Positions 17,349 to 51,922 of a stretch of DNA of 64,000 bases are shown piece after piece. Each line of letters begins with the position of its first letter. Position 1 is the stretch's first letter. Origin of the DNA: Giardia intestinalis. Lineage: Eukaryota. The notes beneath the pieces were generated by a model, which was not told where the DNA came from, made no database searches, and saw only the letters and a program-made list of their open reading frames with translations. Location: assembly GCA_000002435.2 (NCBI GenBank), contig CM018791.1, one strand, 5' to 3'. The position numbers and the translations under genes were made by a program.

Positions 17349-17437
17349 CCAAGCGGAAGGCCGTATATGTAGAAGTTAGTGCAAGATGTTAGTACAAGAT
17401 TTTACTTAAAAAGCTAAGGTTTATTTCGTTGGCCTTA

Positions 17438-19542: not shown

Positions 19543-21234
19543 TAGAAGTGCTTCGCCTGACGGTTATAATAGCAATTTCCATTAAAATATATGGTTAACA
19601 TGTACACTACTTCCTCTGCCAAGGTAGCCCTTCCCAATGGCAACACACCCCAGCAAATGGGCAGTCTGACTGTTCAACAAACATTGCTGTAAGAACACTA
19701 CGATCGTGTAATAACTGTCAATCCTACTGTAACTTTTGATATGTACTAGATTGGTCTCGCATAAATTAAAATTTACTAGCCCGTGATAGGATGAAACCGG
19801 TGCTAGCATATGCACCCACGTAGAGTCGTAAGCAAGCAATCTTGAAGGAAATCCATTCTATGGCCATCAGAGAACGCTGCTCCAGAAAGCAAAGCAGGGG
19901 CGAGACAACTGATCTTTGAGTGGAAACAATGCATCAATTGAAGAGACCGTGAAGCAGGCATTCAGTGCTAGGGACATGTTAGTCAATTCTGGTCTGATGA
20001 CACAAAGTCTGCTACCGATCGAGTGAGATAGCCCTTCCTCGGCCAAAACGATGCATATAGCAGTAACCCTTGCTTTGTCTGCCATAAGAAACTCGCCTCT
20101 ATAAGATGTGGCGCACAAGGAAGGCAAGTTGCCTCCAAAAACTTGTTCCATAGTCATCGAGCCACGTACCCCCTAGCTGAACGGCAATTCATGGGAATGT
20201 CCGGCAAAAGAGCCCCATATATCGCCGAAAGCGTAGAGAAACAGCGTGTAGTACTCCAAAAGATAAAACAGATCCGTCGCGTCTCGTAGGCGTGGCACAG
20301 AATAAAAGCGTGCAGCCAGGGAACAAGTGCAGAGCGAAATAAGCATTGCTAAGCGTTTAGAGCTGCAATGCAGTGAAACAAAAGCATAGAATCGTGGAGC
20401 TGTAGTGAGAAGTGGGCAGTCGCATCCTTGTGGAAGACGCCGAGCCACACAAGCCCCACGCCATGTAGCAGTGCATCAAAGGGGGTGCAGTATGTGCTAA
20501 TTTTCAAAGAAGGACATGTAAACACTCCTCCACCACAATTATAATAAAAAGCGAGCTACTTGGAGTCGTGTCGTCACTCACTTGTACCTGGAACCTGCAC
20601 GCCTGCTCATAACTGTGCCGCGCACACTCAGCTGGGCAATCTGTGCACTGTCTGGAGCTATTGTGATAGGTGACAGCCCCTTCTCAAGTCCGCTTGGGGC
20701 CATGGGTGGACGCCAACCGAAAGATCCTGGGCTGTAGAGCCCCGGGCTGCGAGATACCATTCCTATATGCTGGAAATACGTACGTACAGCTGCTCTGCCT
20801 CAGAGTAGCCTCGGAAACGGCCGATTTGTGCAACTTGCCATGAAAACTGGATTTCAGGTCAAACGCAAATCAATTTCGAAAGAGCCATCACTTTTACCAA
20901 AAGAAATAAGACGGCGGTACACATGCCACAGCATGGTGCCAGGTGCCATCAACCCTCAATAGAACCTTACTGTAAGCCCCCGCTATTTTACTGTAAGCTG
21001 GACAAATGATTTTGACAAGGACAATTATCGCGAACCGCAGGATATGGGCCGCTGCAGATGGCAATGAATGTAAACTAACAGAGTTGTAAACAGTGTTTGG
21101 TCCCGCCTAGGTCATGGGATGAAAGGGCGGTCAACTTTGTCTCTGCAGGACAGAGGCGCTCCGCAAGAAGCCATGTGACACATACTAAAGAACAACACGA
21201 TCATGTTAGAAAGCTAATAATACAGGTGAGTTAC

Positions 21235-22278: not shown

Positions 22279-23229
22279 ATGGACTCGCTTCTGGCGGCAA
22301 TAGCAAGCCTGCGCGAGAACCCGGGAGCGAGGGGGGTGCAGACCGATAACGTTATCCTACAGGACCGGGCTCAGGGGCTGACCACGGTTGTCCTGCGGCG
22401 CAGAGAGGCCTTAGAGTCGAAGGTTAAGAGTCTCAAGTCTCAGACACCAGATGCACTGGGATCGCCAGACCCAGCTGACCAGCTTGTGATGGCGCCACAC
22501 AATGGCCTTATACTCATCAGGAACAGATTCAACATTATGGATGTACATCTACTCCTCTGCGCTGCAGAATTCGTCCATCAACTACAGCCTCTGGTGCTGA
22601 GTGACATGGAAGTAGTGCAGCCTCTTCTAGGGCGCGGAATTTTGGCTGCGTACAATGCCGGCAAGCTATCAGGGGCCAGTCAGCCCCGCAAACACATCCA
22701 ATTGATAGGGCTTCCTTTCCTCTCCAAGAATGAGTGGAATGTCTTTCCACTGAGGGCCCTTGTAGAACGTGAGCTTTCAGACCCAGATAGATGTGATGAA
22801 CCAGCTCAACTTTCCGTGTTTGCTGGGCGGAACCACGGGGTGATTCGCTTCAAAAGACCTCCATCACCAGCGAAGCTATATGCGCATTACACCAAGCTCC
22901 TAGAATATTGCAATGCTGGTGATCTTATCACCGTCAACAAGCACGAACTCGGCCTAGGCTTCGACAGGCCCTCGGCCAGTGCGCCTGAAGATGCTAGTGA
23001 TGAGTGCATGGTACAGGTTTATCGCCGCGATTTTTCATTGCTCATTGCTGAGGAGTTCATCTTCATAGGTGTGCGCGAAACTGAAAAGCCCTTTGAAATA
23101 GGGTGTAACAGCATAAGCTACACAGGAAACCTGTTTGTTAGCAGTGATGATCAGGAGCGGACAGTCGCTGAGGTGGGGCCGTTTGCTGTGCTGGCTGCGG
23201 GTCTGGAAGAACTTCCGCCTAAAAAATAA
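22279..23229 (+). CDS. Hypothetical protein (316 aa)
   Basis: Clean ATG ORF. Its TAA stop overlaps the ATG of the first alpha-giardin (TAATG at 23227-23231). No family was recognised. Confidence 0.55.
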   Translation: MDSLLAAIASLRENPGARGVQTDNVILQDRAQGLTTVVLRRREALESKVKSLKSQTPDALGSPDPADQLVMAPHNGLILIRNRFNIMDVHLLLCAAEFVHQLQPLVLSDMEVVQPLLGRGILAAYNAGKLSGASQPRKHIQLIGLPFLSKNEWNVFPLRALVERELSDPDRCDEPAQLSVFAGRNHGVIRFKRPPSPAKLYAHYTKLLEYCNAGDLITVNKHELGLGFDRPSASAPEDASDECMVQVYRRDFSLLIAEEFIFIGVRETEKPFEIGCNSISYTGNLFVSSDDQERTVAEVGPFAVLAAGLEELPPKK

Positions 23230-24119
23230 TGTCTGCCACGGTATCCACAGTGTCCGCGGATCTTCACAAAGCAATAGATGCTGGAGACGAGGACAAGATA
23301 ACCAAGATTACTGCGTCGTATGGATCTGAGCAGCGCGATAAGATCATTCCAGCCTATCACGCAAACTATGGCATCCCTCCCTCGGAAGCCATCCGCAAAG
23401 CGTTTAAGACAGGCTTCTATGAAACAATGATTGTGCACGCGTGGACTTCACGCTTTGAGCTCCGGGCGAAATTGATTCACGAGTCTATTAAAGGGAAGAT
23501 AGATGTGATAACACTACTGGATCTGGTTATAGCTTGCATGCCTGACGACTGGTACGGCACGAAGGTCTGTTACACAAAGCTCTATGGACGCGAACTTGTT
23601 AGAGAAATAGACGAAGTGATAGGGGTGGGTACTCCTTGGCAGAGTCTTGTTTCTGGCTGGGTCAAGCATGATAGAAAGTATCGCAAGTCAATAAAGAGTG
23701 ATGCGGAGGCGTTTCGAATGGCGCTAGACAGTGACAACTACGAAGTCCTCGGAAGTATGCTTGCGACAAGTGTCCCAGATGAATGGATGCGGATTGCCGC
23801 TGCATACGAAGAGACCACTGGGATGCCTATTGACCAGGCGATTGCATCCCGGTACGTGAAGGTGGACCAGACGGCCTTAATTCTAGCACACCACTGGCTT
23901 TGCGACCCGGGCCAGGCGGCTGCGTATATCTGCTCTCAGTGTTGCGCTGAGCGCAAAGGCAACTACGCACGGATTTGTCGCTTCACCTCCATGATGTACG
24001 ACCATTGCCTGAAGTGCAAGTACGCCTACAGGGCGTATGGGTCCCTCGCAATGGATATTCGGAAATGCTTCGAGCCTAAGCTAGCAAAGCATCTGCTAGT
24101 CTTTTGGCGCGTGGAGTAG
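23229..24119 (+). CDS. Alpha-giardin (annexin-like), array copy 1
   Basis: A 296-aa four-repeat annexin-like protein clearly paralogous to the three downstream copies (shared motifs such as LI..ALSGKND...DLVI.C..EDW and C.RIT.MM.D.CLA.KYAY..YG). The start context is aaaaaataATG. Confidence 0.85.
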   Translation: MSATVSTVSADLHKAIDAGDEDKITKITASYGSEQRDKIIPAYHANYGIPPSEAIRKAFKTGFYETMIVHAWTSRFELRAKLIHESIKGKIDVITLLDLVIACMPDDWYGTKVCYTKLYGRELVREIDEVIGVGTPWQSLVSGWVKHDRKYRKSIKSDAEAFRMALDSDNYEVLGSMLATSVPDEWMRIAAAYEETTGMPIDQAIASRYVKVDQTALILAHHWLCDPGQAAAYICSQCCAERKGNYARICRFTSMMYDHCLKCKYAYRAYGSLAMDIRKCFEPKLAKHLLVFWRVE

Positions 24120-24141
24120 TCTAGAGTTTGCGCATCTCATG

Positions 24142-24147
24142 AGTAAA
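24142..24147 (+). promoter_or_regulatory. AGTAAA polyadenylation signal of alpha-giardin copy 1
   Basis: It lies 22 nt after the stop at 24119. Confidence 0.5.
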
Positions 24148-24226
24148 GGCATGGTCTACTTGCAGTTTGAAACACGGTCATAATACTTTGGATAATTTGG
24201 CAGGCATCCAAAAAATAAAACCGCAA

Positions 24227-25120
24227 ATGGTCACCACGGTCCAAGATCTTGCAGAGCAGCTGAGGCAGGCTGTCGAAAGTTCCAATGAGCAGATGATAGC
24301 AGGACTGGCTAGCGCATACAGCGGTAAAGAACGAGAGAAGGTTCTGAGGGCGTATCTGAGCGCAACAGGTACCACTGCTGCCGACGCTATTCGTAAGGCC
24401 CTCAAGAACGGCCCCACCGAGAACTTGCTCGCCTATCTTTGGGATAAGCCCGGAGATGTGCGTGCCAAACTTATCCGCAACGCGCTTTCGGGGAAGAACG
24501 ACGAAGCTGCCCTTATTGACCTTGTTATCCACTGCAGTTCTGAGGATTGGTACAATACATGCACGGAGTATACAACAGATTACAAAAGGGTTCTCAACGA
24601 CGACCTTCTTTCAGACATAGGGACAAAGGAGCAGTGGACAAAGGTTTTCAAGCACTGGATCCTCCACAAGAGGTCTGACCGCTTCGACATCGATGGAGAT
24701 GAGAAGCGCCTGGTCACAGCCATCGGCAAGAAGGACTACGACACCATTGCAGAGATGCTAGGAACCACATCGGTCAGCGAGTACGCAAACATAGTCAGGA
24801 GAGCTGAGGTAACCTTGGGCAAAACCATAGACCAGGCCCTCTCTGCGGTCTGGTCTAAGCAAGACTTGGCAGTGCTTCTAGCCGCGCACTACGAGCTCCT
24901 CCACCCGGCGCGTCTAGCCTTCCACTTGCTTAAGCAGGCGCTCGACGGCAAAAAGCCCGATGAGGCGCGCATCATACGCATCACGGCCCTTACTTTCGAC
25001 ACCTGCCTTGCGGTGAAGTATGCAGCATCCGAGGCTGGCTACGACATTGGTTCTGCATTCGCTAAGGCCCTAGATAAGCGTCTCGCTCCCCTGATTAAAA
25101 TCCTCTGGCGTGTTATGTAA
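24227..25120 (+). CDS. Alpha-giardin (annexin-like), array copy 2
   Basis: Paralogous to copy 1. The track start at 24167 is a TTG. The first ATG at 24227 gives a 297-aa product matching the family length. Confidence 0.85.
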   Translation: MVTTVQDLAEQLRQAVESSNEQMIAGLASAYSGKEREKVLRAYLSATGTTAADAIRKALKNGPTENLLAYLWDKPGDVRAKLIRNALSGKNDEAALIDLVIHCSSEDWYNTCTEYTTDYKRVLNDDLLSDIGTKEQWTKVFKHWILHKRSDRFDIDGDEKRLVTAIGKKDYDTIAEMLGTTSVSEYANIVRRAEVTLGKTIDQALSAVWSKQDLAVLLAAHYELLHPARLAFHLLKQALDGKKPDEARIIRITALTFDTCLAVKYAASEAGYDIGSAFAKALDKRLAPLIKILWRVM

Positions 25121-25140
25121 AGGCGGCTATTACGCTTTCG

Positions 25141-25147
25141 AGTAAAC
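25141..25147 (+). promoter_or_regulatory. AGTAAAC polyadenylation signal of alpha-giardin copy 2
   Basis: Canonical Giardia AGTRAAY 20 nt after the stop. Confidence 0.55.
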
Positions 25148-25318
25148 GATCTCCAGTTGTGTGAGCCAAAGGAGAAACAGTGGCCGGCTCCCTCTTTTTG
25201 TTTTCTGGCCCAGGTTCTCTAGGAGCCCATCTACGGTTTACCTGGGCTCGTATGAAGCCCTGTAAACCTTCGAACCCTTCGCATCAGTTGGTAGAGGTCT
25301 CAGGGGCAGGAAAAAATA

Positions 25319-26227
25319 ATGACGTCCACTGTTGCTCAGATATGCTCGGATCTCAAGGGGGCTATCGACAAAAAAGACGAGCTTCGAATTGCCTTCATTG
25401 CCTCTGAATATTCGTCGCCGAGTCGTCTTAAAATCGCGCAGAGCTATGAAGCAACCTACAAAACCCCGATCACTGAAGCCATCAAAAAGTCCCTGAAAGG
25501 AGGAACTGCCGAGGATTTACTGGTGAATATGTGGGTCAGTAGACATGAGCATCGCGCAGAGCTGATAAATAAAGCCCTAGGCGGTTCCAGCGACGAAGAG
25601 GCGATTCGCGAACTGGTGTTTCTCTGCAATCCTGAAGATTGGCACGAGACCGCGTCTGTTTATAACCAAAAGTATCAGAAGATCATGCAGGACGCCGTCA
25701 CAAAGGCGATTGGAAGCAAAAGTCATTGGGCAAAGCTTGTGGCAGGTTGGATGGAACACAAACGTGAAGATAGGGGGTCGGTTGAAAACGATGTCAAGTA
25801 TTTGAAGGAGCTCATAGACGCACCCGTGACGGACGGAAATGCGTTAGCGCAATTCTTTGCCAGCACAACCCCTGATGAGTACACTCAGATAGCAGACAAG
25901 TTTTGCGAAGAATATAATTTAAGCATTGATCAGGCTCTTGTGAGGCCGCTAAAGGAGAACGAAGACGATCTGGAGGCATATGCTGCTGCCCACTTTGCGC
26001 TCCACGGGCTTCCCGTCTTGGCGGCCCAACTCATCAACAAAGCATGCAGACCCAAGAACGGAAACGAGCGAAGTATCTGCAGAATAACAACCCTCATGGT
26101 TGATCAGTGCTTGGCGGCAAAGTATGCGTATAAACTCTATGGAGACATGGGGGCAGACCTGTCTCGCTGCTTTGACGAGCGAATGGCCCCTATTTTGCGC
26201 ACGCTATGGCGCGTCACAGATGCATAG
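25319..26227 (+). CDS. Alpha-giardin (annexin-like), array copy 3
   Basis: A 302-aa paralogue with the same aaaaaataATG start context as copy 1. Confidence 0.85.
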   Translation: MTSTVAQICSDLKGAIDKKDELRIAFIASEYSSPSRLKIAQSYEATYKTPITEAIKKSLKGGTAEDLLVNMWVSRHEHRAELINKALGGSSDEEAIRELVFLCNPEDWHETASVYNQKYQKIMQDAVTKAIGSKSHWAKLVAGWMEHKREDRGSVENDVKYLKELIDAPVTDGNALAQFFASTTPDEYTQIADKFCEEYNLSIDQALVRPLKENEDDLEAYAAAHFALHGLPVLAAQLINKACRPKNGNERSICRITTLMVDQCLAAKYAYKLYGDMGADLSRCFDERMAPILRTLWRVTDA

Positions 26228-26296
26228 GATAAGCGAACTCATGATGGAAATTCAAATTACCTTAAAATATATTTTCTGAGCGCTTACATTTAGAAA

Positions 26297-27187
26297 ATGC
26301 CGAAGCTATCCCAGATCGTCGCTGACATGAAGCAGGCCATCGATGCCAAGGACGAGGCCCAGATCGCGTTCATAGCGTCGGAATACTCTGCAGATGCGCG
26401 TCAGAGGATTGCGCAGGGGTACAGGGACCAATACGGCAAGGAGCTCCCCGACGACATCAAGAAGGCGCTCAAGGGCGGCTCCGAGGAGAGCCTCCTGATG
26501 GATCTCTTCAGCGATCGTCACGAGGTCCGCGCCCAGCACATCCGCGACGCGCTTTCCGGCAAGAACGACCACATGGCCTTCTTCGACACAGTCATTCTGT
26601 GCACCCCCGAAGACTGGCACGAGACCGTCGCCGCCTACACGAGGATGTTCAAGAAGCCCCTCGTCGAGGACTTCATGAAGGATGTCGGCCGCAAGGAGAA
26701 TTGGTGTCTTTTCATGGAGAAGTGGATGGCTCACGAGCGCACTAGCCGTGAAGGCAGCCCTGACGAGGAAGCAGAGAAACTGAACAAGGCGTTCAGTGAG
26801 AGCGACCACGACTACATTTCCAGCTTCATGGCTGGGGTGCCTCCCGAAGAATACAAGTCCATCAACACCAGCTTCAAGAGCCTTACAGGAAAGGGCATCG
26901 ACCAGGCCTTCGCCACCATCTATACGGGGACTGACTACTACTCCCTGTACTGCGCCCACTTTGCTCTTCTTGGCATGCACAAGCTTGCCGCCTACCTGGT
27001 CAACTGCGCCTGCAACGATAAGGGCGACGAGAAGCGCATGAGGAGGATCACGGGCATGATGGTCGACAAGTGCTTGGCTGCAAAGTATGCCTACAAGACC
27101 TACGGGAGTATGAAAGCCGACGTCGAAAGGTGCTTTGATAAGCGCATGGCTCCGATCCTCTGTACCCTCTGGCGCCTAAGGGAGTGA
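26297..27187 (+). CDS. Alpha-giardin, alpha-1/alpha-2-giardin-like (array copy 4)
   Basis: At 296 aa it is closest to the recalled alpha-1/alpha-2 giardin sequence (KELPDDIKKALKGGSEESLLMDLFSDRHEVRAQHIRDALSGKNDHMAFFDTVILCTPEDWHETVAAYTRMFKKPLVEDFMKDVGRKE, CACNDKGDEKRMRRITGMMVDKCLAAKYAYK). The exact paralogue number cannot be assigned without a database. Confidence 0.9.
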   Translation: MPKLSQIVADMKQAIDAKDEAQIAFIASEYSADARQRIAQGYRDQYGKELPDDIKKALKGGSEESLLMDLFSDRHEVRAQHIRDALSGKNDHMAFFDTVILCTPEDWHETVAAYTRMFKKPLVEDFMKDVGRKENWCLFMEKWMAHERTSREGSPDEEAEKLNKAFSESDHDYISSFMAGVPPEEYKSINTSFKSLTGKGIDQAFATIYTGTDYYSLYCAHFALLGMHKLAAYLVNCACNDKGDEKRMRRITGMMVDKCLAAKYAYKTYGSMKADVERCFDKRMAPILCTLWRLRE

Positions 27188-27235: not shown

Positions 27236-27242
27236 GTTTACT
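27236..27242 (-). promoter_or_regulatory. AGTAAAC polyadenylation signal overlapping the stop codon of the minus-strand membrane-protein gene
   Basis: The minus strand reads cAGTAAACa, with the TAA stop (27238-27240) embedded in the motif. Confidence 0.55.
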
Positions 27243-30198
27243 GCCTTCTGTTTCTTTTTGCCCTGTCCTGGCGGTCCAAGATGCTATCCTGCGATGAGAG
27301 GTCTTTCGAGAACGGATGCGAGAAGTCTGGGATTGCTACATGCCGTCCACCTGACTGTGAGGGTGAGTAGGACTGGAGTAGCGGCAAGGAGTGGGAGCTC
27401 ATGTTGTCCATAGAGCTGTATGCCTGATCAATCTGCCCATTTCCTGCTTGTCCTCTGCGGGTTTTTTGTTTCAGATCTGAGCTGCCTAACCGAGAGGGGC
27501 CGTACTCTATGCTTAGTTCTCTATTAACCAACTGAACAGCCTTTGCTCGCTTGCTTGCCAGTGTATATTTATATCTATATTTCAAGAACAGAGAGAGGAC
27601 CGTGATGAAGAGGAGCAGGATGAGTGTCGCAACGGACCAGAACACGACAATAAGGGCTATAGACATCTTAGAATGATAACCAACAAAGCTTATGAACTCC
27701 TCTCCACTGAAAGAAGAGGAAAGATACCGAGTCTCGTAAAACTGAATGGTAGTCCTATCGATGGTGTGCCCCCAGATAGGGTCTACTATCGGCTGGTTGG
27801 TAAGATTGCTTGCAGCGGTATCGACAGCTGCCACAACCACTAAGTAGTAAGGCTCGTGCTTGTACGAAGGAAGGTCAACGGGAATGCGAAGCATGGACCA
27901 GGTGTTATTTGCTTGCTCGATAAACTCAGGAGTATATATTTCAGTATTGTCTGCAGCGGGTGCAACGACCCACTCGCTTACTCTATAAACAACATTAGAT
28001 GTATCCATATCTTGTACACTAGGTGTATGCTCTAGTGCCCCCTCTAGCCCACATCTGGAAATAGGGACCATCGGATAGGCCTGTCTAACCTCAGCCACGG
28101 ATGCACACGGGACCAAGTAAACGGCGTATGCAATATGAATGCCGGCCTCTCCGGTGTAAGCGGTGTACCTTTGTGCCGGTGCCTTGGCGCTATCCACCTC
28201 AATTATGTCAGACATAAGTCCCGTATGGATTCTAACTCGCGAATCGCCAATGATGATCCCCGCAAACCTTGTTAAATACCCAATTTTATAAGAGATTGCT
28301 GAGGGAGAGACATATTCTGTATCAAGGATCCTAACAAATGTAGCGTATGACGAGTACACAGGGGCATACACCATTGCCTCTGTGATAGGAACAAGCATGT
28401 CCAGGAAATTGATTCCCGAATGATCCATGTTGTCGGTCAGGCGGAGCTTAATTGGTTTTTTGTTGCTTTGATTTGAAAGGAACAGAGACGTATTACAAAC
28501 ATCAAAATAGATGTACCCACTGAGAGTGCTGACTCCCGTAGTGTGGCCAGAGTCTATGTAATATAGGTTCAAGGCCGATAGTGGATTGCTCTCTGTTCCA
28601 TAGAGCAATCCTGGTCTCAACGGAGCTGGCTTGGCCGCGTTTAGAATCAGGAGATCCAAATCAACAGAATGTTCAAGCTTTATATAGATTGAGCCGGTAT
28701 CTGGCTGTACTGAGAAGTCTTCTGGGCGAATCCGGAGGACAGCAGATTTATTTGTTATTGCCTCGAGATAGGTTGGTATGACAGAGCTCCCTGCATAGTT
28801 AACTCCACTAAGGTGGGGGAAGTTCATAACGTAAGCAAGAGAGTTATGAGTTTCGTTCGGATAGACAAGCGTAGTACTTAAGAAGAACTGCACATACGGG
28901 TGAAAGTTGGGAATAGAGACTTCGTAGAACGGGCGGAGCGTGATAACAACAACGAGCTCATCATCTATCCAGCCAGGATTCTCTATGATGAGAAGGGTTG
29001 CCTTGTTGCGATTATTTTTATTCACGAAGGATAGTGTCTCTGTGGCGCCGGTTATGAAGTTAACGTTAGTAAGGAATATCTTGCAGCTCCCGGCACTCTT
29101 TAAATTATATATCTCTGCTGACGTTGAGGCCTGGTACCCGGCAAACGAGGATAAGTCGGAGACATAGATAGAGGAAAGGTATCCTGGCGGAGTTACCTCC
29201 TGTACGGTCATCCACGCGTACCGAAGAGTGTTCTGCAGTATTAGGGAGCAGGCTACACTAAGGATATTATATCTAAGACAGATCCTGATGGAGGAATAAG
29301 GAATGCGCTCGGCGTCGAGACAGGTCGAGCCTATTAGTATTTGTGTTCCTGCTCGATAGTCAGATATGTCAACGGTATAGTGTATGGGTACATTATAATA
29401 GTCTATCTGCAAGTCAGGAGTAAAGCGCTGGTAGCGCTCAACATACGATATTGTCAAAGAGGAGAGTTCGTCGTGGAGATTGACAGTAAGGTAGTAGAAG
29501 CTTGACTCCATAAAGAGGCGCTTTGGGAGCGTTAAGTGGTCCTCTTGGTCGTTGGTAGCAGCAACGTACTGATACGTGTTACCAACAGAGCGAATGAGTA
29601 GGGTGGTAGGGTTGGCCAGCGACTCTCTTTTTGTAGCGAACGGTTGAGAATGAAGATCGATGAAGCAAGTAGGAGGAGCGTTCGCAGGTGTTTTATCGCC
29701 ATCAGAGAATGTGAGGAGGATGTCATGGAGTCCATCGTTTGCTAAGGCGAGAACACGCTCGCTTGCACGTGCATTGCCAGCAATAGTTATACTTTTTCCA
29801 TATATCAACTGCCTAAAGAGCCCGGCTGTGAAGTTTATGGTCGTAGGCATGGTAGCCTGGACTGTGAAATCGATGACAGATGGTGTAGAGCTTTCAGATA
29901 GCTGAATCAAGGAGGCTACTGTTTCCAACGGAATGGCAGTCATGTTGCTTCCCGTCGTTAACAAAAGCGGTATCCTCCCTACAGATACGCTCACAGTCGA
30001 CGTCTTTGCATAGGAAGTAAGGTTGACGCATAGGAGAGGCGAACTATTATGAACTGGCGTATATGTATACCTTATAGTGGCTGTGGAGTCTATGTCTAGA
30101 GAGATTGGTTCCATGTCCTTTATATTATAGACTCCTTCAGTGCTATGGGACGCTAGTATCATGGAAAGAAGAGCGAGTTGCAGTGTTCCCGGCCCCAT
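27238..30198 (-). CDS. Large type I membrane glycoprotein (signal peptide, approx 830-aa ectodomain, one TM, approx 110-aa cytoplasmic tail), family unknown
   Basis: The track start at 30207 is a TTG, and the ATG is at 30198. The N-terminal signal peptide is MGPGTLQLALLSMILASHS. It has many N-x-S/T sites, a single TM helix (IALIVVFWSVATLILLLFITVLSLFL) and a basic/Ser-rich tail. Confidence 0.75.
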   Translation of the reverse strand: MGPGTLQLALLSMILASHSTEGVYNIKDMEPISLDIDSTATIRYTYTPVHNSSPLLCVNLTSYAKTSTVSVSVGRIPLLLTTGSNMTAIPLETVASLIQLSESSTPSVIDFTVQATMPTTINFTAGLFRQLIYGKSITIAGNARASERVLALANDGLHDILLTFSDGDKTPANAPPTCFIDLHSQPFATKRESLANPTTLLIRSVGNTYQYVAATNDQEDHLTLPKRLFMESSFYYLTVNLHDELSSLTISYVERYQRFTPDLQIDYYNVPIHYTVDISDYRAGTQILIGSTCLDAERIPYSSIRICLRYNILSVACSLILQNTLRYAWMTVQEVTPPGYLSSIYVSDLSSFAGYQASTSAEIYNLKSAGSCKIFLTNVNFITGATETLSFVNKNNRNKATLLIIENPGWIDDELVVVITLRPFYEVSIPNFHPYVQFFLSTTLVYPNETHNSLAYVMNFPHLSGVNYAGSSVIPTYLEAITNKSAVLRIRPEDFSVQPDTGSIYIKLEHSVDLDLLILNAAKPAPLRPGLLYGTESNPLSALNLYYIDSGHTTGVSTLSGYIYFDVCNTSLFLSNQSNKKPIKLRLTDNMDHSGINFLDMLVPITEAMVYAPVYSSYATFVRILDTEYVSPSAISYKIGYLTRFAGIIIGDSRVRIHTGLMSDIIEVDSAKAPAQRYTAYTGEAGIHIAYAVYLVPCASVAEVRQAYPMVPISRCGLEGALEHTPSVQDMDTSNVVYRVSEWVVAPAADNTEIYTPEFIEQANNTWSMLRIPVDLPSYKHEPYYLVVVAAVDTAASNLTNQPIVDPIWGHTIDRTTIQFYETRYLSSSFSGEEFISFVGYHSKMSIALIVVFWSVATLILLLFITVLSLFLKYRYKYTLASKRAKAVQLVNRELSIEYGPSRLGSSDLKQKTRRGQAGNGQIDQAYSSMDNMSSHSLPLLQSYSPSQSGGRHVAIPDFSHPFSKDLSSQDSILDRQDRAKRNRRQ

Positions 30199-30270
30199 TA
30201 TGGGCAAAACTGTTTGTAGAGATGAGGATGGGTTTGCTTTTTATTTTTCTCTGAGTATTTCTACTCTACC

Positions 30271-33200
30271 ATGCCTCCTCTGGCCCGTAGAGACCTTACC
30301 ATTCCTGCAGCCCTGCGCGCTATCTCTCGACAAACAGGGCACCGCATCTCATGTGATGAGAAGCGTGCGAAGTCAAGCATCTCTCAGTTTCGCAGCCACT
30401 CCCCTCAACCGTCATACCTTGCATCGGAAGCCCGTCTCAGTGGATACAAAAGTATATTTAAGGCGCAAAATCCACCGAAAGTCCTTTCCAGTATTGATGC
30501 TTTTCTTCGTCCGAACGAAGAAAAGAAAGAACCCATCTCCCCGCCATCAGAGGCGGTCATAGGCTCGCCAAGGATGTTTACCATGAGCCCAAAGTTTGCC
30601 AGAAGTAAGGCACTTGGCATAGATCCCCGCTCTCTAGCGCCCTCAGACAATATTTACTATAAAGCAGCCGAGTTTCCCAGTCAAAATGCAGAGTTCTACA
30701 GCAATCAGCCACCACCCATCACAAGCAGCCTCCCAGATACAGCATACAGCAAGGCGGTTCATCCTCCGACAACCGAGGACGGAATCCGACGTGTGGGCAG
30801 CGTCATGTCTGTGTTGCGGCCAACAGATGCGGCTCCCCGACTAGAAAAGGCGCAAGCAGCAGACTTCCTTTTAGAACAACTCATAGAGAACTCGGTTCAG
30901 ATCCTGCACGGGCTCGGACTCAGTAGGATTTATGAAGCAAACCAGACCCAAAATTGGTATGAATGTGAGGTAATTGCAAAAATGGGTGATAAGTTTGAAG
31001 TGTACTTTCCTGCTATCAACCATAAGAAGATAGTAACATTGAAGAACCTAATATTAAAGCAAATTACGATCACACAGGCCTCTGATGTTACTCTTCCTAT
31101 GTTGCCAAACTACAGTTCGCAGAACACCAACTCAATGGCTGCAATCACTAATGCAATACCCACAGTTCCTGAGGCACAGAGTTTAGCACACGCTCCTTTC
31201 TCACCTCCCTCTGAACAGAGAGACAAGGGCACAGTTGCAGACTCCGCACACATGGCCTCATTCAGTACACTTGCTGATAAGCCAGCGGTTGTTCTTCCTC
31301 CAAGAAAAAAATCCAGACCAGCTCCTCACACCGCTAGTTCTGACTCACATTACCAGTCAGTGCCCATTACCTTAGATGATATAGCAGAAGCAACAGACTC
31401 TCAGCAGATCAATCTGTTTGATGAATCTTTTGATAACTCATCTTTTACCCACGTAATCACACAACCCTATGTTCATGTAACGGTATCTCCCTGTATGCCC
31501 TGCATCTCTCTGGAGCCACCTAGCAGTATGAGCGCATCGGAATGCACAGTAAGAAGTGATATTCAACCCGCACCAGAGCTTGAGGAGCCCGGCTGTGCTA
31601 ACCTTTCCGTCATGGCAGATATGCTCAGTGATCTTATTAATGAAATCACACCAGCGTATAACACGTCACTATTTGGGAAGCGCCCCTCCTCCTGTCGACT
31701 GAATATCACGGACGCTCAATCTGATCCCGATGCAGTCCCTTCAAATATGTACAGGGGACATGCAAATCATACTGGTGCTCCATTTGATTGCGTAGAGTTG
31801 TATGAGGCCACTGAGCAGCCAAACAACGCTAACACTACTTTTGAGTGTACAGATTTCCTTGAGCAGGTGCTGAATAGCGCTAGTCCAGAGGTAAACAATG
31901 ACCCCAAGGAGTCATCTCTTACGGCGAACATTGTTCTCACCGATGCTAAAGGCCCACCAGATATATTCCTTTCCAACGACACAACGACTAGCAAGACCGA
32001 TCAGTTTGAAATCACACTTAAGCCATTGGCTGCACCAAAGGAGCAAGACACACTCTGTACATATACCCCCATACAGCAGCTCCCGCTGACACCCTCAAGG
32101 AACAAGCCTACCAGAACCATTGACTTAGTGTCTCTTCTGGGGATAACAACGCACACAGAGCTTATCAATGTGTTCCTGGAGTGTATAGATCACTTCACTC
32201 TCAAAGACCGCTTTGCAATGGCTGTTCGCTATCTGTCTTCGGAAATTCTTCACCGCAAGGTCCAAAACCACCAGTATTTAAGTATATTTACCACTTCCAT
32301 CATAGCAGCACTACTGGAGCTACGATTGCCCCACACAAGCCGTGCATCATATACGATAGACTGCGTTACGGATTACCGCGAGGCACAAATAAGATTGGAT
32401 AAGGTGCGCTTCAAATGCAACGCCGATCGCCTCCAGGCACTTCAGAATCTTGCACACGAAAAAGAGCTGCTTTACAAAAAGCTCTGCCTCACCTTTCAAA
32501 CTAAGAATCTGACTACCAGCTCTGCTGTCGAGTTGTGCTCCATCGGAATCAAATCTGCTCAACCTATCTTAAACCACATCAGAACGAGCAAGCTAACCCT
32601 TCATCTGGAGTCACTAGATCCCCCTGCTTTCAACTTCCAGCAGACAATGGCAGATGCAGTCATGGACTACCTGGCCAATGCACAGACGACTGATCTTCAA
32701 ATCCAGCTTATTCAAGAGGCCTCTATCAATACCTCTTCCCCTATTCACTGGTGTCACACATATCTTGCTAGCTTTTTATGGAACACATCCAAATATTACC
32801 TCACTGCTCAAAACACTTCTATAGTCAACTACATGGCACAAACGGCTGCTGATCGTCGCTTGATGATGGAGCGGGGAATAGCTGCACTATCTAATATCTC
32901 GTACCTGAGTGCAGATCGAGCGATGTTTCTACTTTTCCGACAACTTACAGCTACCATCGAAGACTATATCGGATATCTGACGCTTACGCCGGATCTCCTT
33001 TTGGTGACTGGGATTCCGTTTTACCCAAAGGTCTCGCCGGATATTTTAGGGTCCATTGTTTTCACAGAAGACTCTGAACAAAGGGAAAAGCGACTAGTAA
33101 CGGAAAATGGCGTCTCCCTTGATCCTGATCAAAAGGTAGTGATGTTCGACGGATACTCTCTCAAGAAAAGACTTGGCTACCGGTTTTTTCCCGAGGTGCA

Positions 33201-48200: not shown

Positions 48201-51198
48201 ACGGAAAGACCAAGTTGTATCTCAGATGTTCCTTCTGCTGCGTAGCGAGTTCTCTCGCCAGCGTCTTTTGAAGTACAAGCTGCAGACAGACCAATTTCGC
48301 GTTCTGGAATTTGCGAGTCTCCTTATTCTCCACAAGGTCTTCAAGCGCCCGATCTTTGCTAGTAAGTATGCAATCCGTGATCTACCGCTTCTTGCAGATT
48401 GCATGGGTGCCTTAGATCCGTTTCTTTCCGTCCATACAGTCAGGGTGGCCCAGAATCTTTCTGCGTTTTGCTCTGCATTCCGAAAGGCTCTCCTAGACGT
48501 GCATACAAGAGTTATAGTCTTTGAGATAGCAGACACATGCCCTGCAATCCTGGATATTCTTGTCGCCTTCACGGTAGTTTATCCCTCTAAGGTTGAGACT
48601 GTGAATGAGGACACAACTTATAGCATACAAACTTTCTCCGTAAAGACTCCACGGCCCTTATCTCAGTATCGCTTCATAGTGACATTCGATATTGACGGTG
48701 CCAATCCTTTGGTGTATTGCATTGAGCCTGTAATTGTCAATCCATCTATTTTGCAAATGGATGTGTTAGAATTTCCATGGTATGCCTTGTTACAGAATGC
48801 TAGTATCTCTGCTGGCACCCTTTCTATGCACCGACCTTTTAGCTCCAAGGACGCTGAGGCCTCTATTCTTCTGCATAAGGATACAATACTTCAGCAGATT
48901 ATTTGTCACTACATTAATGGATACCACGACCGAGTTTTGGAGTATAGAACTGCTATTGTGGAGCTTGAAAGTGTAGTGGAGAGACAGCTACAGGTGTGCA
49001 TTGAGCAGTTGCATGAAGTGGAGAGTACCAGCTATACAGCAAAGGCATCAGTAGTCTATACGTGCTACAGGACATACCTTGACCAGGTGGACACACTATC
49101 TGCACTGTCCGATAAAAACAAGGCTATTCTCACAGAGCGGGCAAAGATGGAGAACGACGAACAGAGCAATCTCAATGTTGCCACCAGAATTATTATGGCC
49201 ATGAGCAACTATCTGCTCCGCTTGGCCCTGAGCTACCCTGCTGTACTTTATCCTCTGATATGTATACAATCCAAACCGTTCGCACATGACACAGATTATG
49301 TAGATTGCTCCCTTTTATTTTTACTCGAGATTGCTGATAACTTGTATAGAGCACTTCCACTATCAATCTTTCTCCCTGCCCTCATAATGGTTATAATAGT
49401 TTCTGAAATTACTCGGGGAACATTAACTCTGGATGACTATCAGCTCTTTAGCGCTGTTATGCTATCTGTAGGCAAGATACCCACTATCAACAGGGAAAAT
49501 ATTGATGTCGCCTCTCCATTCGGTCCCTACTATGCCGTTCAGTTTGATTCTTCTGGAAAGATTGTGCTTACATCAAAGGAGGCCTACTGCCTGGCTATGC
49601 TCCGAAAAGCTCATCCAAAAGTAGATTTTTCCATATTCACCACACCACTGGTGGGATCAGGAGAGGAGCCATTGAGTAGTGCACACACTACAAGGAACAA
49701 TCTCATGCTATACATCTTACGACAATACTCCGAAAAGAGCCCCAAACACATACACAATTTTCTTAGGACACTGGGAGAGTCCTTCTATTGCAAAATCATG
49801 GGTCTAGTATGTTATGGAACCGCCGGAGTGCAGACTACCACCAGTTCTAGACTAGCTTGTGCATTCAAGATTAAGCTTCCTGGGCCATCTATTGGACTAA
49901 TAACGAGAGTTGCTCAATCTGCCTCACCGTCCAGGGTCGTGCTTCTGCTCACTGCCAACACCGTACAGACTGCATATGCGCTATGGGCAACAGGCTTGTT
50001 TACTATGTCAGCTTCTGTGCTAGATGCAAGTACCCCCCAGGGGGCAGGATTGATTCTGTACCCATGTGTCCCGATACATGCTTTATCACGGCTTACAAAG
50101 GGATCTGTTGGAGTAGCTGATATTAGTTTGGGAATAACGACAATCTCGGACATATGTTGTCTGCTATCGCAATTGTCCGCGTTAAGCACAGCGCATCAAG
50201 CAGATAACCTATTAGTATGGTCTGATCGTCCGTTGGGGCTTCGTGCGCTGGTGGCCGCCATCACCGTGCCTCTGAGAATGCGCAAGAGGAGTTCATGGCT
50301 CTTGTCTCCATTGACACAGGTAGTGTGTACGGTTCATACCGACCAAGATCGCTTGATGGAGAGGCTTATAGTTGCTTCTATAGCAATATGCATGCGCTAC
50401 CCCCTTCTATTTAATAAGCTGTCGTTTTTCTTCAACCGTTCTGAAGCTATTCTCTCTTCAAACCAGTGGTATTTTCAATTAGTTCGAGCACGCTGCAATC
50501 ACGTGGTTACAAACATGAAGCAAATACAAAAACTCTGTATTAATGAAACAAACACACTAGAATGCATTGTGAGGTTTGCGCATGGGTTCTCATCAATTAT
50601 AGAAAAGGCAAGCCTGCATTCTTTCGTCTATGCTTTTGACAAGCTGACCCTAGGGCTACATGATGATGCTTATAGGCAACCCCTTGCCTCTCTCTTTACT
50701 TTCATGACCTTGCTACTGTTGCAGTTAAGCCCGAATAGTGATGAAGATGGTTTTGTTTCTGCTTCTGAAATGGAGCAATCAGTGACGTGTACTGGGCAAA
50801 GCCTTTCTGCCCCGATTCTGGATATGGCAATATTAAGCTCTAACGATGCTCTGATTAGTGATTCTGTTGGTGGAACAACCTCCGATGCCTACTCTTCTCG
50901 AGACGACTTTGCCACTTACTCTGATAGAATAATTCGATGTATGCTAACATTCACTACCCTTCCAGATGCGCGACTACTTACATCCTCAGTCCATCAGTTG
51001 CGCCAATCCCCTGTTCAAGCATCAACCCTGGCACATTCTCTCCTGGAGGAACTAGTTGCTTCATCACAACAAGATCAGCAGACTTCTCCAGAGAAACGTC
51101 TAGTTACACCTGTGCAGGCTCAAAACTGCGGTGTATACCTCTTACAAGACGATTGCGTGGTAGCTCCTCTGAATGAGAAAAACGCTGCCGATGCATAG
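30271..51198 (+). CDS. Giant hypothetical protein (6,975 aa) with no recognisable catalytic motif
   Basis: A single uninterrupted 20,928-nt ORF with the ATG at 30271 behind an AT-rich leader. It has no Walker A/P-loop, so it is not dynein or midasin-like. It is L/S/T/I-rich and non-repetitive, with a few hydrophobic segments and one poly-Cys cluster. Confidence 0.8.
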   Translation: MPPLARRDLTIPAALRAISRQTGHRISCDEKRAKSSISQFRSHSPQPSYLASEARLSGYKSIFKAQNPPKVLSSIDAFLRPNEEKKEPISPPSEAVIGSPRMFTMSPKFARSKALGIDPRSLAPSDNIYYKAAEFPSQNAEFYSNQPPPITSSLPDTAYSKAVHPPTTEDGIRRVGSVMSVLRPTDAAPRLEKAQAADFLLEQLIENSVQILHGLGLSRIYEANQTQNWYECEVIAKMGDKFEVYFPAINHKKIVTLKNLILKQITITQASDVTLPMLPNYSSQNTNSMAAITNAIPTVPEAQSLAHAPFSPPSEQRDKGTVADSAHMASFSTLADKPAVVLPPRKKSRPAPHTASSDSHYQSVPITLDDIAEATDSQQINLFDESFDNSSFTHVITQPYVHVTVSPCMPCISLEPPSSMSASECTVRSDIQPAPELEEPGCANLSVMADMLSDLINEITPAYNTSLFGKRPSSCRLNITDAQSDPDAVPSNMYRGHANHTGAPFDCVELYEATEQPNNANTTFECTDFLEQVLNSASPEVNNDPKESSLTANIVLTDAKGPPDIFLSNDTTTSKTDQFEITLKPLAAPKEQDTLCTYTPIQQLPLTPSRNKPTRTIDLVSLLGITTHTELINVFLECIDHFTLKDRFAMAVRYLSSEILHRKVQNHQYLSIFTTSIIAALLELRLPHTSRASYTIDCVTDYREAQIRLDKVRFKCNADRLQALQNLAHEKELLYKKLCLTFQTKNLTTSSAVELCSIGIKSAQPILNHIRTSKLTLHLESLDPPAFNFQQTMADAVMDYLANAQTTDLQIQLIQEASINTSSPIHWCHTYLASFLWNTSKYYLTAQNTSIVNYMAQTAADRRLMMERGIAALSNISYLSADRAMFLLFRQLTATIEDYIGYLTLTPDLLLVTGIPFYPKVSPDILGSIVFTEDSEQREKRLVTENGVSLDPDQKVVMFDGYSLKKRLGYRFFPEVQMAANNTAHGHSVPLTNIINDTPARSLFIRIEKGINFMQKLDFYLTNSFILLFEILIPYIQETLLSNYDQKMQRSLEKMIKMEKINSKRQKLPDETIEKLAIQAQSSLKHGYVELEKQIEVYIYRLFNKVFEDTVFPLWLGLIHSLLHSIDVPEKCDRYALHSGTSAMSEEVASIQQHHEHCSADATTLDALTKNMKGSTGSGIDESTLRATDLCTERTASFLQMPESVELDSDSAPSSVLVSGMNVDADNLLLSHVSAMRGCNLSSSLQSGPLVLTKLFTPEIANFFLQLQEKFANIKQKYQQVSSILFTTPYTRPIFESLDLDLNYFQADMAQNSLDTAKESIEHILNVLSTLVIHVIFETNSYGLISNIAFDPSSDSIYSGLLCFIFDLVDFYSATPTLVNVLLNRRVNAQVDIVDLIADSAGMGVKRPHVRGGREHAVSEAIQGPTYLYDNEPALDNDQLVSRSVIGMNTTLLRPLVSPDTKDMSANSYLDVAKDVVDSFVIENWNIFKRESVYSEYIKMFFDLDITSCTQSYQLHSSQPPCASKNPKKAPVHAQNASAIDPFETADLKIPHAITKRKRQLSRVTSRLRNDPPASGLKLMSVAKLALTNMSIYLKSLQNDFSTFYHANLLALRDLFNEAYLFPREVYTGSKTMLSLYSLFRSKLKALRKNHTKQINGRLAKELGLSTDVKDDVESRKIPIEDMVASAEVVVSETGAVSHPSIDSSHFYLDETSCRDYFLPIHHPIASYLQGDMMDKFLFTTEPAEHSSRKYEEELRKSVAANRTGACHARNLIFDELLLFTGYLRQPAVVTALCQFYIPGDKPPELLSKHIIDITNTSSIITRILSNIYGLSESYYAVTALPPVCFYGTIKIDYSNYLATVARQAHELYVLYLNRLDDYCRLIHECGVTCIEYITKNLMNTHFDSAASLGAVYFIFKNFATFYPKWRDYYAWFNDVSVCLGNMIIDGRRAALLNEKLLYYRTQGSLMLMKTFKSMENRSQSISQCYQKLISQLTLIDNWVLSTQDALFQRIREYIRLNTQAIALCDEAPAKFAQQYETFTRNFVFPRAVRNLHDKGDLLDITAVLKSIDSATCLPFLSSLSDCLRRREPSILQLFHRDTDASGIPIFRSVDFPAAFTECEDIAHHLILLCEALIRTRKDALALNMYPYNDKTLFPTDKAILDAITEDRNLSAIDAVIFYDKDVDTAKTRTARRDYFLKQLLDPGESLKLSSSTVDAILHPSTQQGPVLTRLRNLLPLLFLINKLVALYFDFLSNFEQWMNCTIGRLSLSDVKNFVVQVVITATIILETLRDSVPISELARTLLQFITKKRSQLQLFFILKSSLYKINFIQSPNAARNVCLSSFEAMEVVTNRLLLLSDLEPLRTNELGQLLGIIQANIDEFLCIDPRDLHVVDFYVRDLLKYNRSKYSDETKVKIFLEIVSNHECSIMRSYRIGLHRIRAERFQYIQSSLIQRALANKENRVNPDERLEFPCHFLVSRTGGFVLETTVLQPQVLEVVSKYASTSDQGTTQTAEKLPAASRKALYSFHSEELSGKLQDLTKVSMSDTLDASLEMYEEGRDTDSAKTVEPDEKLTMTAALAQKEGIVIRGPIRNAAINASQCFSTGIFYEACTFGYLAYQYFGLFVLDQDEKDNKQPNVDLGKSSRKCGNNIAAETRRYNSSLDRIKLLGSDEPVIYSRVSADYSPLNSVYLKQNYPSFLDKSHFLSLCYHADFTLVGDKRGKLLFLEKKLTIKVPRKLFELDSQLQYDLLGLQGPLSHTTEQRPAAPTCMALKRLTIIPDINLHIFTILCAVLQNYVTFDSLASHLFDLDAIHQLVSLQWRVYLLMSRCIFIISYVRAHANKLFYYVDMQTICLQARGLPVLVPAVHTRAVTHKFLTLLYKTQTLLSTAQSNGATMSNIASRKVLRDTIFAQIKDLIEFEGEIVAANMPFLQHSGTLRDSANFPDSYMLSRQFLVSSFIESIIYDNFYSPVICSADKLTECKGAVVCSLPARVITACSTVLSNFGFHRMQFVIYKIVSLTNSRSFYIFAGVLFGMDLHEASGRQQEYLRFCMPILLDRLPHCFTILTYSMLQTTISASLSWYVQYYSDILANDALNCDIALCILRSIPLATGVLAILRLFHVLVSDSTKPGVNSLEKLKTLRSALATLTYVLSILLRYQIITVPSTYMSLVHRSVCISIDKYLDPSTSVCCHTHFTIDFEALEEQFPYNHQRHDMPITKAVTFEQHAPTEDSYTIPCFDMLHGSLSKDFKREAQKDYMAALLHYNKHHIKHATILGPCTVLPFSYLYIKDTSPLEVQISSILQETFTSVRYRLFRDILISLSNTLSDIIEDCVETPPVLTLPPSEKQIQPPDTASPTVNPYVSHGFVTSIFVSGGDESLFRLLDDFNIFAFQLLGDYLHTYNRDFITSMRFFQTRASFLGTQQAFTPMRVYSGVTPVCAYKGHVFLDASFPDGMFAEFSTLPIYSEILDKLLFYKLLFIVSPINDGPACNSPLKSFFSAYVPLITGHPVVFDQPCLVDEFSIESMTDKEATYFRSLLCMLVLGAIIVITSEVATRHNWATYMRLHEERVRQDLPGSLVFILPGLVKTYHEHNIEEPMYVLAEKALSILALYGLGQESNHLIRYRDGFVGTDKVQQYVHDTDLSIKIERLAAKFSQLSVGSQSLSNAMLRSVFSNTPNVLSAAPLPYLLRNYLLLIAGTLDDSEARMVLTAVFVSTFGTSLLDKDESGQDAMAFLTELTERYAASSYYFLDSDMKEVPASANPPMTYTVPFALMFSYAFSSLQYIRASHTELRFFSEPACLTESEKRLNQEFHLSTSNMRLCGLLSEFYLQFFGRDILATFPFSTTGFYFLFNLVYIILLILTQSVSIGPIGLHVIDLPLCNTLYGMVTAAIRYLVSDIIIMELRFQNQCRFASKRLNIADPVEGEESSISHPSFVEVTDVSQITDVATGRVTYRPYTIYFMALKVINPTQDTTMLYEILLSAPRPSTTAIVIMSPCLRLLQSFTGYHLHSQHSLLNPKLLLQYQTREIRYYHTFKLSSISTSESTDVSYSQFEDLITSFSITQLQRLMQMKAMRFFIQLSPLVLAFCADACLLTEPRDYYAAYCNFVYLCSKYCIITVVPVIQNGFETASLYGRWETSDPCSNSISDLERLLGSRMKGKEQATPQATVYEAQTSTKDFEQLASSIVGSAVTTFPGAMSTCDSAIDKCMATSFMHHTAQGSVTEQGHADIKRPKENNVFELFNISQNKLLCTMPIPHDSVRQCLIFSQLEIRCNPAFFTCFTYCNQNYSELVAKLALIIFGLAFSACKLKTIVPAGSNSEVFRRMSAFLASSLNIDDLYSDSQDVLFDFHEQAYKQCREALLMDGPQTAYSVFLSRYFLSTNDEESLTDTNEAYSTAYNETHGAISVDRYVYVRILNSMLPTAQTIAAKGDAFLYSLLLPSFSMEPMTYEGLRLVEETISRFSDGDFDTLLTLLNFSTVYLHFTPALYPKRYILHQGTTKRPSSTLYSPVGVQEDRPGPFNEIVDVGYLTAYPISSYDAELRMLALSIVAAMFCKIPVVLFSVFSPIFNQSALRAATALFEEDTSVLIQDDKYRENMQLQTSADEHIKFGTFSYNTYLIHSVCTDADLIQLLARLRSMCQFVSCNSQTYLVSPCRLIVLIRAHASFLYYPTLLTLLGQKVQMIDNTGVMQLVTLRNILFLVDVAHGPPKDMLRIYQVSHLYTVRTDVSLPRTRRDRLCTQGKHYGHYLLAKIFGFRAVSRQLENFLLDRNFMYTERISASISTIWLMEQYYGVSRSNDHTLNDTISAIIYNSIEQAATQYHEQYPEIYSALYGATTKQRLMLKLADAPAASSTLEALTCRQLLTHTPGQGVLLKQLIDAFNINLLKILINRSLYSHFMNEYAERVGGRKNRKSRQHTTARQASAISRKSGASRSCCGSRASSLTVLEETIEEGTFFTPTIDLSYYQSVKSKRLEDKSDGPSSKNSDSFDTTSTSAAAISPRDQRASDIKSSQVPSLSVKWLKPPMVQQNPEVDEHTESAVKLPAVVSSLLNKDVGTKYLAKLSSLTGQDYFGVHTMELRNILAEAHLSPMHIPTTLFVPSGLLSYADFILLAKSLPGVLDALPIDSRVHPVDKDSILLVDIAAACGLTDRALPPVLQTMSVTDRFLTALRAATCAAMGMPPSAAYPRIFERFKKQAFSGIGSSLESPLYLPSGRLSDTTIMPQHILSTHPLLAIPRWHFHINIQTQTLIQYKTSMRTRTEFHPEYVPYNKYPHQFNTVILAIPLSLAVSCNLLTMVANFLYPGSGENSWINREDQSDFLSDFSSISKLGLVTTRTYLCFVSCTMQVIIFDNYCLQAAVRKDILAILPPHLDVVHFHAGLSMHKDIASITQSPLMQHRLSIPILALPPTATITTQQKTVEISEQLAEMRVYIVAYYLYDTLVTQFSSFSIPFSNSVESSGELDTEHANMDVNQRTLTAYSAQRSTKDSTLHSDESSNYVDSEIRSLRLPSLLSCPSSARSKRSVHNDFQDKYKHAATVSGIHARSIKSISKFIPYSNINDFILIVRHVYRNLRSYYASKLHDISLFQQQSVNLTKLAKHGSIQTQETLTRTAENIAQFAATIVPEEDLDEEKYKESTKALHEAEKRLATITQELTDAEAKVKTQKEKLKNSIEGSCAAVMYFGDSKLASYVKALLADPAKYRNFAELLHRIPVISSAVETVSITPCAALPIADFWNIVAAEVFSSCERLYSLLVGFDQERDVLDPITTIDSSAFNGIETIVFTWYMETIEYRRFKDECVAQFKLEELRNNHVNQQHIVSTLAAENRLLQQTCQNTDKARNISSSQLDLLEAQLCDLKELFQIEKDTIGMVVKHIPSMVTEERRMRQMHNLSYVHGVIVAATVYFGIGLTSICIDILSKASGTCSSEECCAFCSILDLPLCSCCNCCLCFCDCKYVMSDTGATFLVKADVFSERSICRHMKRKDQVVSQMFLLLRSEFSRQRLLKYKLQTDQFRVLEFASLLILHKVFKRPIFASKYAIRDLPLLADCMGALDPFLSVHTVRVAQNLSAFCSAFRKALLDVHTRVIVFEIADTCPAILDILVAFTVVYPSKVETVNEDTTYSIQTFSVKTPRPLSQYRFIVTFDIDGANPLVYCIEPVIVNPSILQMDVLEFPWYALLQNASISAGTLSMHRPFSSKDAEASILLHKDTILQQIICHYINGYHDRVLEYRTAIVELESVVERQLQVCIEQLHEVESTSYTAKASVVYTCYRTYLDQVDTLSALSDKNKAILTERAKMENDEQSNLNVATRIIMAMSNYLLRLALSYPAVLYPLICIQSKPFAHDTDYVDCSLLFLLEIADNLYRALPLSIFLPALIMVIIVSEITRGTLTLDDYQLFSAVMLSVGKIPTINRENIDVASPFGPYYAVQFDSSGKIVLTSKEAYCLAMLRKAHPKVDFSIFTTPLVGSGEEPLSSAHTTRNNLMLYILRQYSEKSPKHIHNFLRTLGESFYCKIMGLVCYGTAGVQTTTSSRLACAFKIKLPGPSIGLITRVAQSASPSRVVLLLTANTVQTAYALWATGLFTMSASVLDASTPQGAGLILYPCVPIHALSRLTKGSVGVADISLGITTISDICCLLSQLSALSTAHQADNLLVWSDRPLGLRALVAAITVPLRMRKRSSWLLSPLTQVVCTVHTDQDRLMERLIVASIAICMRYPLLFNKLSFFFNRSEAILSSNQWYFQLVRARCNHVVTNMKQIQKLCINETNTLECIVRFAHGFSSIIEKASLHSFVYAFDKLTLGLHDDAYRQPLASLFTFMTLLLLQLSPNSDEDGFVSASEMEQSVTCTGQSLSAPILDMAILSSNDALISDSVGGTTSDAYSSRDDFATYSDRIIRCMLTFTTLPDARLLTSSVHQLRQSPVQASTLAHSLLEELVASSQQDQQTSPEKRLVTPVQAQNCGVYLLQDDCVVAPLNEKNAADA

Positions 51199-51754: not shown

Positions 51755-51922
51755 AGGGTCAGACGAAAGGCGGTTTCTTCCTCACGTTGGGCTCAGCGGT
51801 AGCTGATTTATCTCTCTTCATCTACGAACCCCTTTTCTGTGAGCTGCAAAGTGAATTTAAAATACAATCTATTTTTAAAGTATCTTTTCATCACATTATG
51901 GCGTAATACATTTCCTCGCCAG

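Follow-up and report, generated by a model that had tools for sequence, protein, structure and literature searches.

An A/T-rich core promoter of Giardia lamblia is reportedly known from the studies of Elmendorf, Yee and Holberton. It consists of a short stretch rich in A/T, located no more than about 60 bp from the ATG, and no other conserved motif is apparent upstream of the genes in genome-wide comparison. The Giardia genome is very compact, with intergenic distances of 30–177 bp called the "typical range", and its promoters are about 60 nt long (PMC1885649). These promoters have been described as inherently bidirectional. A single core promoter placed between two head-to-head reporters drives both of them, with the wrong-way reporter reaching 33% of a two-promoter control; the divergent transcripts begin in the distal A/T element, and a TATA-like A/T element lies about 30 bp upstream (Teodorovic et al. 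2007, PMC1885649). The ran and phd genes, a natural head-to-head pair, have a common spacer of 153 bp (PMC1885649). By TSS-seq, an A/T-rich 11-nt consensus was found, centered on the dominant transcription start (Tolba et al. 2013, PMC3792122). Some adjacent divergent genes start at the same nucleotide of a roughly symmetric consensus, and these authors argue that what looks like a bidirectional promoter is in many cases a pair of neighboring unidirectional initiators (PMC3792122).

Outside Giardia, bidirectional promoters are known from yeast and mammals, where divergent genes less than 1 kb apart have a common nucleosome-free regulatory region, an arrangement comparable to the one described below. 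Mammalian bidirectional promoters lie in CpG islands, and the two genes are often correlated in expression and related in function. The Giardia arrangement, by contrast, follows from genome compaction and from loosely directional A/T promoters, and co-expression of neighbors is no general rule.

We analyzed the divergent spacer between the genes GL50803_137755 and GL50803_16544 within a window of 64,000 nt (the whole stretch of DNA considered here) from Giardia duodenalis (syn. lamblia, intestinalis) isolate WB. As with ran/phd and the alpha-2-tubulin promoter (Teodorovic et al. 2007, PMC1885649), the arrangement is head-to-head with a short spacer, here half as long as that of ran/phd, and a single A/T core plausibly fires both ways, with the "correctly" oriented direction expected to be favored. 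Those systems have a pair of Inr and TATA-like elements, whereas this spacer has one conserved A/T block. Like the Giardia core promoter in general, the block is short and A/T-rich and lies no farther than about 60 bp from the ATG, and the spacer has no other conserved motif. The 5′UTRs, about 28 and 44 nt if the predicted starts lie in the element, are in contrast longer than the usual 1–20 nt. The architecture is standard for the compact Giardia genome, in which bidirectional promoter use is already documented.

The divergent spacer and its two genes

The spacer covers positions 30199–30270, as read directly from the sequence. On its left side lies GL50803_137755 on the minus strand (27238–30198; 986 aa from the ATG), and on its right side GL50803_16544 on the plus strand (30271–51198; 6975 aa; in the following called the giant gene). 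Both are exact matches to annotated WB proteins and both are annotated as "hypothetical protein". The CAT at 30196–30198 reads as ATG on the minus strand, and the plus-strand ATG occupies 30271–30273. Because the former reaches 30198 and the latter opens at 30271, the spacer is exactly 72 bp long. This bears out the first-pass annotation, which had described a 72-bp head-to-head gap of AT-rich sequence: the GC content of the spacer is 36%, compared to 48.6% for the window, and the string quoted there, ctttttatttttctctgagtatttctactctacc, is found at 30237–30270.

An alternative TTG start for GL50803_137755 at 30207, taken from an ORF listing with the bacterial code, was rejected; the organism is a eukaryote, and translation begins with the conserved ATG at 30198. 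The orthologue in isolate DHA2 (assemblage A2) is annotated with 989 aa, which is the length counted from the TTG at 30207. The discrepancy with the 986 aa in WB is probably an annotation difference.

We asked how unusual the spacing is, and for the gap statistics counted as a gene each non-overlapping ORF of the window that begins with an ATG. The median gap between ORFs is about 70 bp in the 64-kb window, and its six divergent gaps measure 72, 89, 234, 757, 1083, and 1692 bp. A divergent gap of 72 bp is typical, the norm for this compact genome. [quoted passage not shown]

GL50803_137755 has a hydrophobic N-terminus, which is kept in five Giardia lineages despite sequence divergence, and the mature N-terminus after the hydrophobic stretch is conserved as TE.(V/I)Y.(I/V).DMEP. 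A single strong transmembrane (TM) segment lies close to the C-terminus at about residues 847–873 (Kyte-Doolittle value of 2.97 at 847–865), with a conserved tail of about 113 aa behind it. By these heuristics, the protein is consistent with the type I membrane topology proposed earlier. It has 11 N-x-S/T sequons, compared to 8.4 expected from its composition, and five sequons in the ectodomain are conserved in 5/5 lineages; glycosylation appears possible. The ectodomains of VSPs and high-cysteine membrane proteins (HCMPs) are cysteine-rich, with about 10% Cys or more and CXXC motifs. GL50803_137755 was rejected as a member of either class, with 9 Cys in 986 aa (0.9%) and no Pfam match. An AlphaFold2 model calculated from a five-sequence alignment had a mean pLDDT of 32.7, too poor for a fold search.

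The protein encoded by the giant gene is rich in leucine and serine, its hydrophobic segments are weak and no strong TM segment is found, so that a cytoplasmic location appears plausible. Neither protein matched Pfam or PDB sequences, and no homologue outside the G. duodenalis complex was found for either of them in a word-indexed search of 5.8 billion proteins and in JGI metagenome contigs. For GL50803_137755, a full HMMER search against 1.84 billion representatives likewise yielded no distant homologue. Judged by these searches, both proteins are Giardia-only orphans.

Conservation of the spacer in five Giardia lineages

We compared the WB locus with that of four other lineages, whose contigs were found via orthologues of GL50803_137755. 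These were P15 (assemblage E; L001), a human-gut metagenome contig (L002), which is probably of assemblage B, and two more divergent lineages from the read sets SRR17450158 (L003) and ERR3333378 (L004). The GL50803_137755 orthologues are 82, 72, 64, and 65% identical to the WB protein in the four lineages. The two neighbors diverge alike, with identities of 82/72% for GL50803_137755 and 84/72% for GL50803_16544 to the same two lineages.

The head-to-head pairing is present in 4/4 other lineages. Conservation in other Giardia genomes, which the first-pass annotation had named as a check, was thus found in P15 and in three further lineages. All other flanking genes are likewise in the same order in all four: four annexin-like genes, an Ap4A-phosphorylase-like gene, a WD40 gene, and a histone-fold gene. 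Because the whole neighborhood is equally syntenic, the conserved adjacency reflects the general synteny of the species complex and is no specific signal.

The spacers were then aligned together with 340–360 nt of flanking sequence. They are 72 (WB), 73, 86 (L002), 70, and 70 bp long, and both start ATGs are conserved across the five lineages except for the GL50803_137755 start in L002. Within this alignment, positions 30236–30249 form the sole constrained block inside the spacer, reading GCTTTTTATTTTTC on the plus strand and GAAAAATAAAAAGC on the minus strand. Ten of the 14 columns are invariant in all 5 lineages, with a mean pairwise identity of 0.87 over the block. For the remaining 59 columns of the spacer, the pairwise identity is 0.52, compared to 0.53–0.54 for the third codon positions of both flanking genes and 0.74–0.88 for their constrained codon positions. 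Outside the block, the spacer diverges like third codon positions, that is, at the neutral rate. With an assumed neutral invariance rate of 0.2, the binomial probability of at least 10 invariant columns among 14 is 4.6e-5, or about 0.003 when corrected for the window positions.

In WB, the block is upstream of both genes, separated by 21 bp from the ATG of the giant gene and by 37 bp from that of GL50803_137755. These distances are steady within 2 nt, at 20–22 bp on the side of the giant gene and 36–37 bp on the other side, the shifted ATG of L002 apart. By our reading of the sequences, the conserved start codon is the first ATG encountered when moving away from the tract on either strand, in 5/5 lineages. 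Seen from the giant gene, the tract spans −34 to −21, and in the 20–22 bp from there to the ATG no conserved A/T element was found in the alignment of the five lineages.

In L002 (positions ~2545–2561), an ATA stands in place of the GL50803_137755 start codon and an ATG 15 nt downstream is used, leading to the 86-bp spacer and a shorter signal peptide. The comparison also exposes that automatic gene calling in two draft assemblies wrongly set both start codons at this spacer. In the Logan assemblies of L003 (1–10001) and L004 (9848–10001), the automatic calls extend the giant ORF across the spacer, and in L004 the membrane protein is begun at an internal Met (that of DMEP), by which the signal peptide is lost. 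Despite these calls, the conserved ATGs are found in both lineages at the same places as in WB.

Probable promoter use of the A/T block and alternative readings

On the minus strand, positions 30237–30247 read AAAATAAAAAG, a verbatim variant of the transcription-start consensus oriented toward GL50803_137755, which appears in the table of the commonest consensus variants (PMC3792122). In a PWM made from the variants of this table, it scores 13.8 bits, and the window contains only 8 sites of at least 12 bits (both strands of 64 kb, i.e., 128 kb). The plus strand of the tract, TTTTTATTTTT with its central A at 30243, is a poor match with −2.8 bits. If the central A of the minus-strand match is the start, transcription of GL50803_137755 is predicted to begin near 30242, with a 5′UTR of about 44 nt. 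Across the five lineages, starts within the tract would give 5′UTRs of 27–29 nt for the giant gene and 43–57 nt for GL50803_137755. Giardia 5′UTRs are usually quoted as very short, about 1–14 nt (PMC3610916); only 31.5% of the mapped start regions lie within 40 nt of the ATG (PMC3792122). The start sites of this locus are not among the rows listed in the TSS-seq supplements of the latter study.

The spacer must contain the promoters of both genes. It holds one constrained element, this element matches the start consensus, and a shared bidirectional core element is therefore the best reading: the 14-bp tract probably represents a single core-promoter element that serves both genes and is used both ways. 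The pattern of one conserved A/T block recurs in another divergent spacer of the window (17349–17437), in line with this reading. The label "bidirectional promoter", chosen in the first-pass annotation for the whole 72 bp, is reasonable in view of the one constrained A/T element with its consensus match, while use in both directions is what we infer from these features.

In such a promoter, the transcription machinery would assemble at the tract (30236–30249) and fire in both directions. Toward GL50803_137755, the A-rich strand would serve as the initiator, with the start near 30242 and a 5′UTR of about 44 nt. Toward GL50803_16544, transcription might start on the opposite strand within the tract near 30243, which would leave a UTR of about 28 nt, or the tract might act as a "−30" TATA-like element with the start nearer to the ATG. 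The output would likely be asymmetric, GL50803_137755 above GL50803_16544, because the consensus faces GL50803_137755 and the giant gene lacks another conserved A/T element. For two uncharacterized, Giardia-restricted genes, the likely core promoter is hereby narrowed to a 14-bp tract. The locus, in which one conserved A/T block lies between neutrally evolving flanks and faces two genuine protein-coding genes, is a clean natural test case for the question whether one element fires both ways or two initiators lie next to each other.

Both genes are transcribed. In the listed rows of Table S1 of Franzen et al. 2013, GL50803_137755 has trophozoite FPKM values of 60.1 in WB, 48.6 in AS175, 43.0 in P15, and 16.2 in GS, and a 3′UTR of 9–15 nt. 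For GL50803_16544, a series of encystation time points and cysts (Einarsson et al. 2016, Table S1) gives FPKM values of 6.1 in trophozoites, 7.9 at 90 min, 4.1 at 7 h, 5.7 at 22 h, and 18.0 in cysts. The levels are about 10-fold apart, ~60 FPKM for GL50803_137755 and ~6 for GL50803_16544, in two different studies with different normalization. With this provenance of the values, the gap is consistent with an orientation-biased promoter. GL50803_16544 is not among the rows of the Franzen et al. table listed down to 38.55 FPKM, due to either lower expression or absence from this four-way orthologue table. Among the rows listed in the supplements of PMC3792122, PMC8700996, PMC4670223, and PMC5913674, no expression or proteomic values matched the two genes.

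Alternatively, the 72 bp could contain two independent unidirectional promoters, with the tract as the initiator of GL50803_137755 and a weak initiator of the giant gene's own in GAGTATTTCTACTCTACC, the 21 bp adjoining its ATG. We regard this as possible, though rather unlikely. The consensus match is indeed strand-specific (13.8 bits on the minus strand versus −2.8 bits on the plus strand), the very short 5′UTRs typical of Giardia favor a start of the giant gene nearer to its ATG, and paired initiators correspond to the view of bidirectional loci taken by Tolba et al. (PMC3792122). However, the 20–22 bp beside the giant gene's ATG evolve neutrally and contain no conserved A/T element in the five lineages, whereas the tract at −34 to −21 occupies the place expected for a TATA-like element. 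Even with a separate initiator, the tract would probably contribute to the promoter of the giant gene.

A further proposal of the first-pass annotation concerned the proteins: the head-to-head arrangement would be due to co-regulation, and a type I membrane anchor would bind a giant cytoplasmic scaffold as a functional pair. We consider this improbable. Five Giardia lineages keep the pairing and the spacer length, both proteins are orphans restricted to Giardia with similar divergence rates, the conserved cytoplasmic tail of ~113 aa in GL50803_137755 could bind something, and the giant protein, which lacks a strong TM segment, is plausibly cytoplasmic. Against this, a divergent gap of 72 bp is the norm here and the order of the flanking genes is equally conserved, which makes the adjacency uninformative; the arrangement gives no support to a membrane anchor and its scaffold. 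In SAGE data for head-to-head neighbors at most 250 bp apart, the tag ratios are widely scattered genome-wide, although the authors allowed for a relationship where the promoter region is common (PMC1885649). The steady-state levels of the two genes are about 10-fold apart in the separate studies, and a full-text literature search by either gene ID found nothing relevant and no mention of either gene in the papers covered. Combining both ideas, one could envisage a conserved module in which the cytoplasmic tail of the membrane protein docks the giant protein and both genes are tied to one bidirectional A/T initiator. Its support would be an adjacency whose conservation does not exceed that of the remaining locus, and we find such a module highly doubtful. 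A common promoter element does not imply a partnership of the two proteins, and co-regulation is not supported either.

Homopolymeric A/T tracts are generally known to exclude nucleosomes in other eukaryotes. S/MAR-like A/T elements are reported for Giardia (PMC3017767). That the tract is such a nucleosome-excluding or a matrix-attachment poly(dA:dT) sequence, or a chance patch of low mutation, and not a promoter element as such, is very improbable. Conservation by chance is unlikely (P of about 0.003 after correction), and the tract matches a transcription-start consensus variant verbatim, at distances from both ATGs that are typical of promoters. A tract free of nucleosomes between divergent genes would in practice work as a bidirectional promoter element, which is hardly a distinct outcome.

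Further features of the window

Several other features of the window were noted. The longest of the six divergent gaps, 1692 bp at 19543–21234, contains no ATG-initiated ORF of at least 100 aa and is unusually long for such a compact window; Rfam and tRNA scans of this stretch gave no match. On the plus strand at 22279–27187, an Ap4A-phosphorylase-like ORF precedes a tandem array of four annexin-like (alpha-giardin-type) genes of 296–302 aa. The Pfam matches of these genes were obtained from the orthologues. The first annexin ATG and the preceding stop codon have base 23229 in common.

At the other end of the giant gene, a candidate ATG-initiated ORF of 193 aa lies at 51173–51754 on the plus strand. 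It begins inside the giant coding sequence, whose final 26 nt it covers in a different frame. The downstream side of the giant gene and of this ORF is adjoined by the C/D-box snoRNA GlsR8, the miR10 precursor, at 51757–51826 on the minus strand (Rfam RF02337, 104 bits compared to a gathering score of 100).

A second short divergent spacer of 89 bp is located at 17349–17437, between a gene for a 1299-aa protein and a histone-fold gene. It contains a single A/T block, AGCTTTTTAAGTAAAAT, that is kept in WB, P15, and SRR17450158, while the remainder of the spacer diverges.
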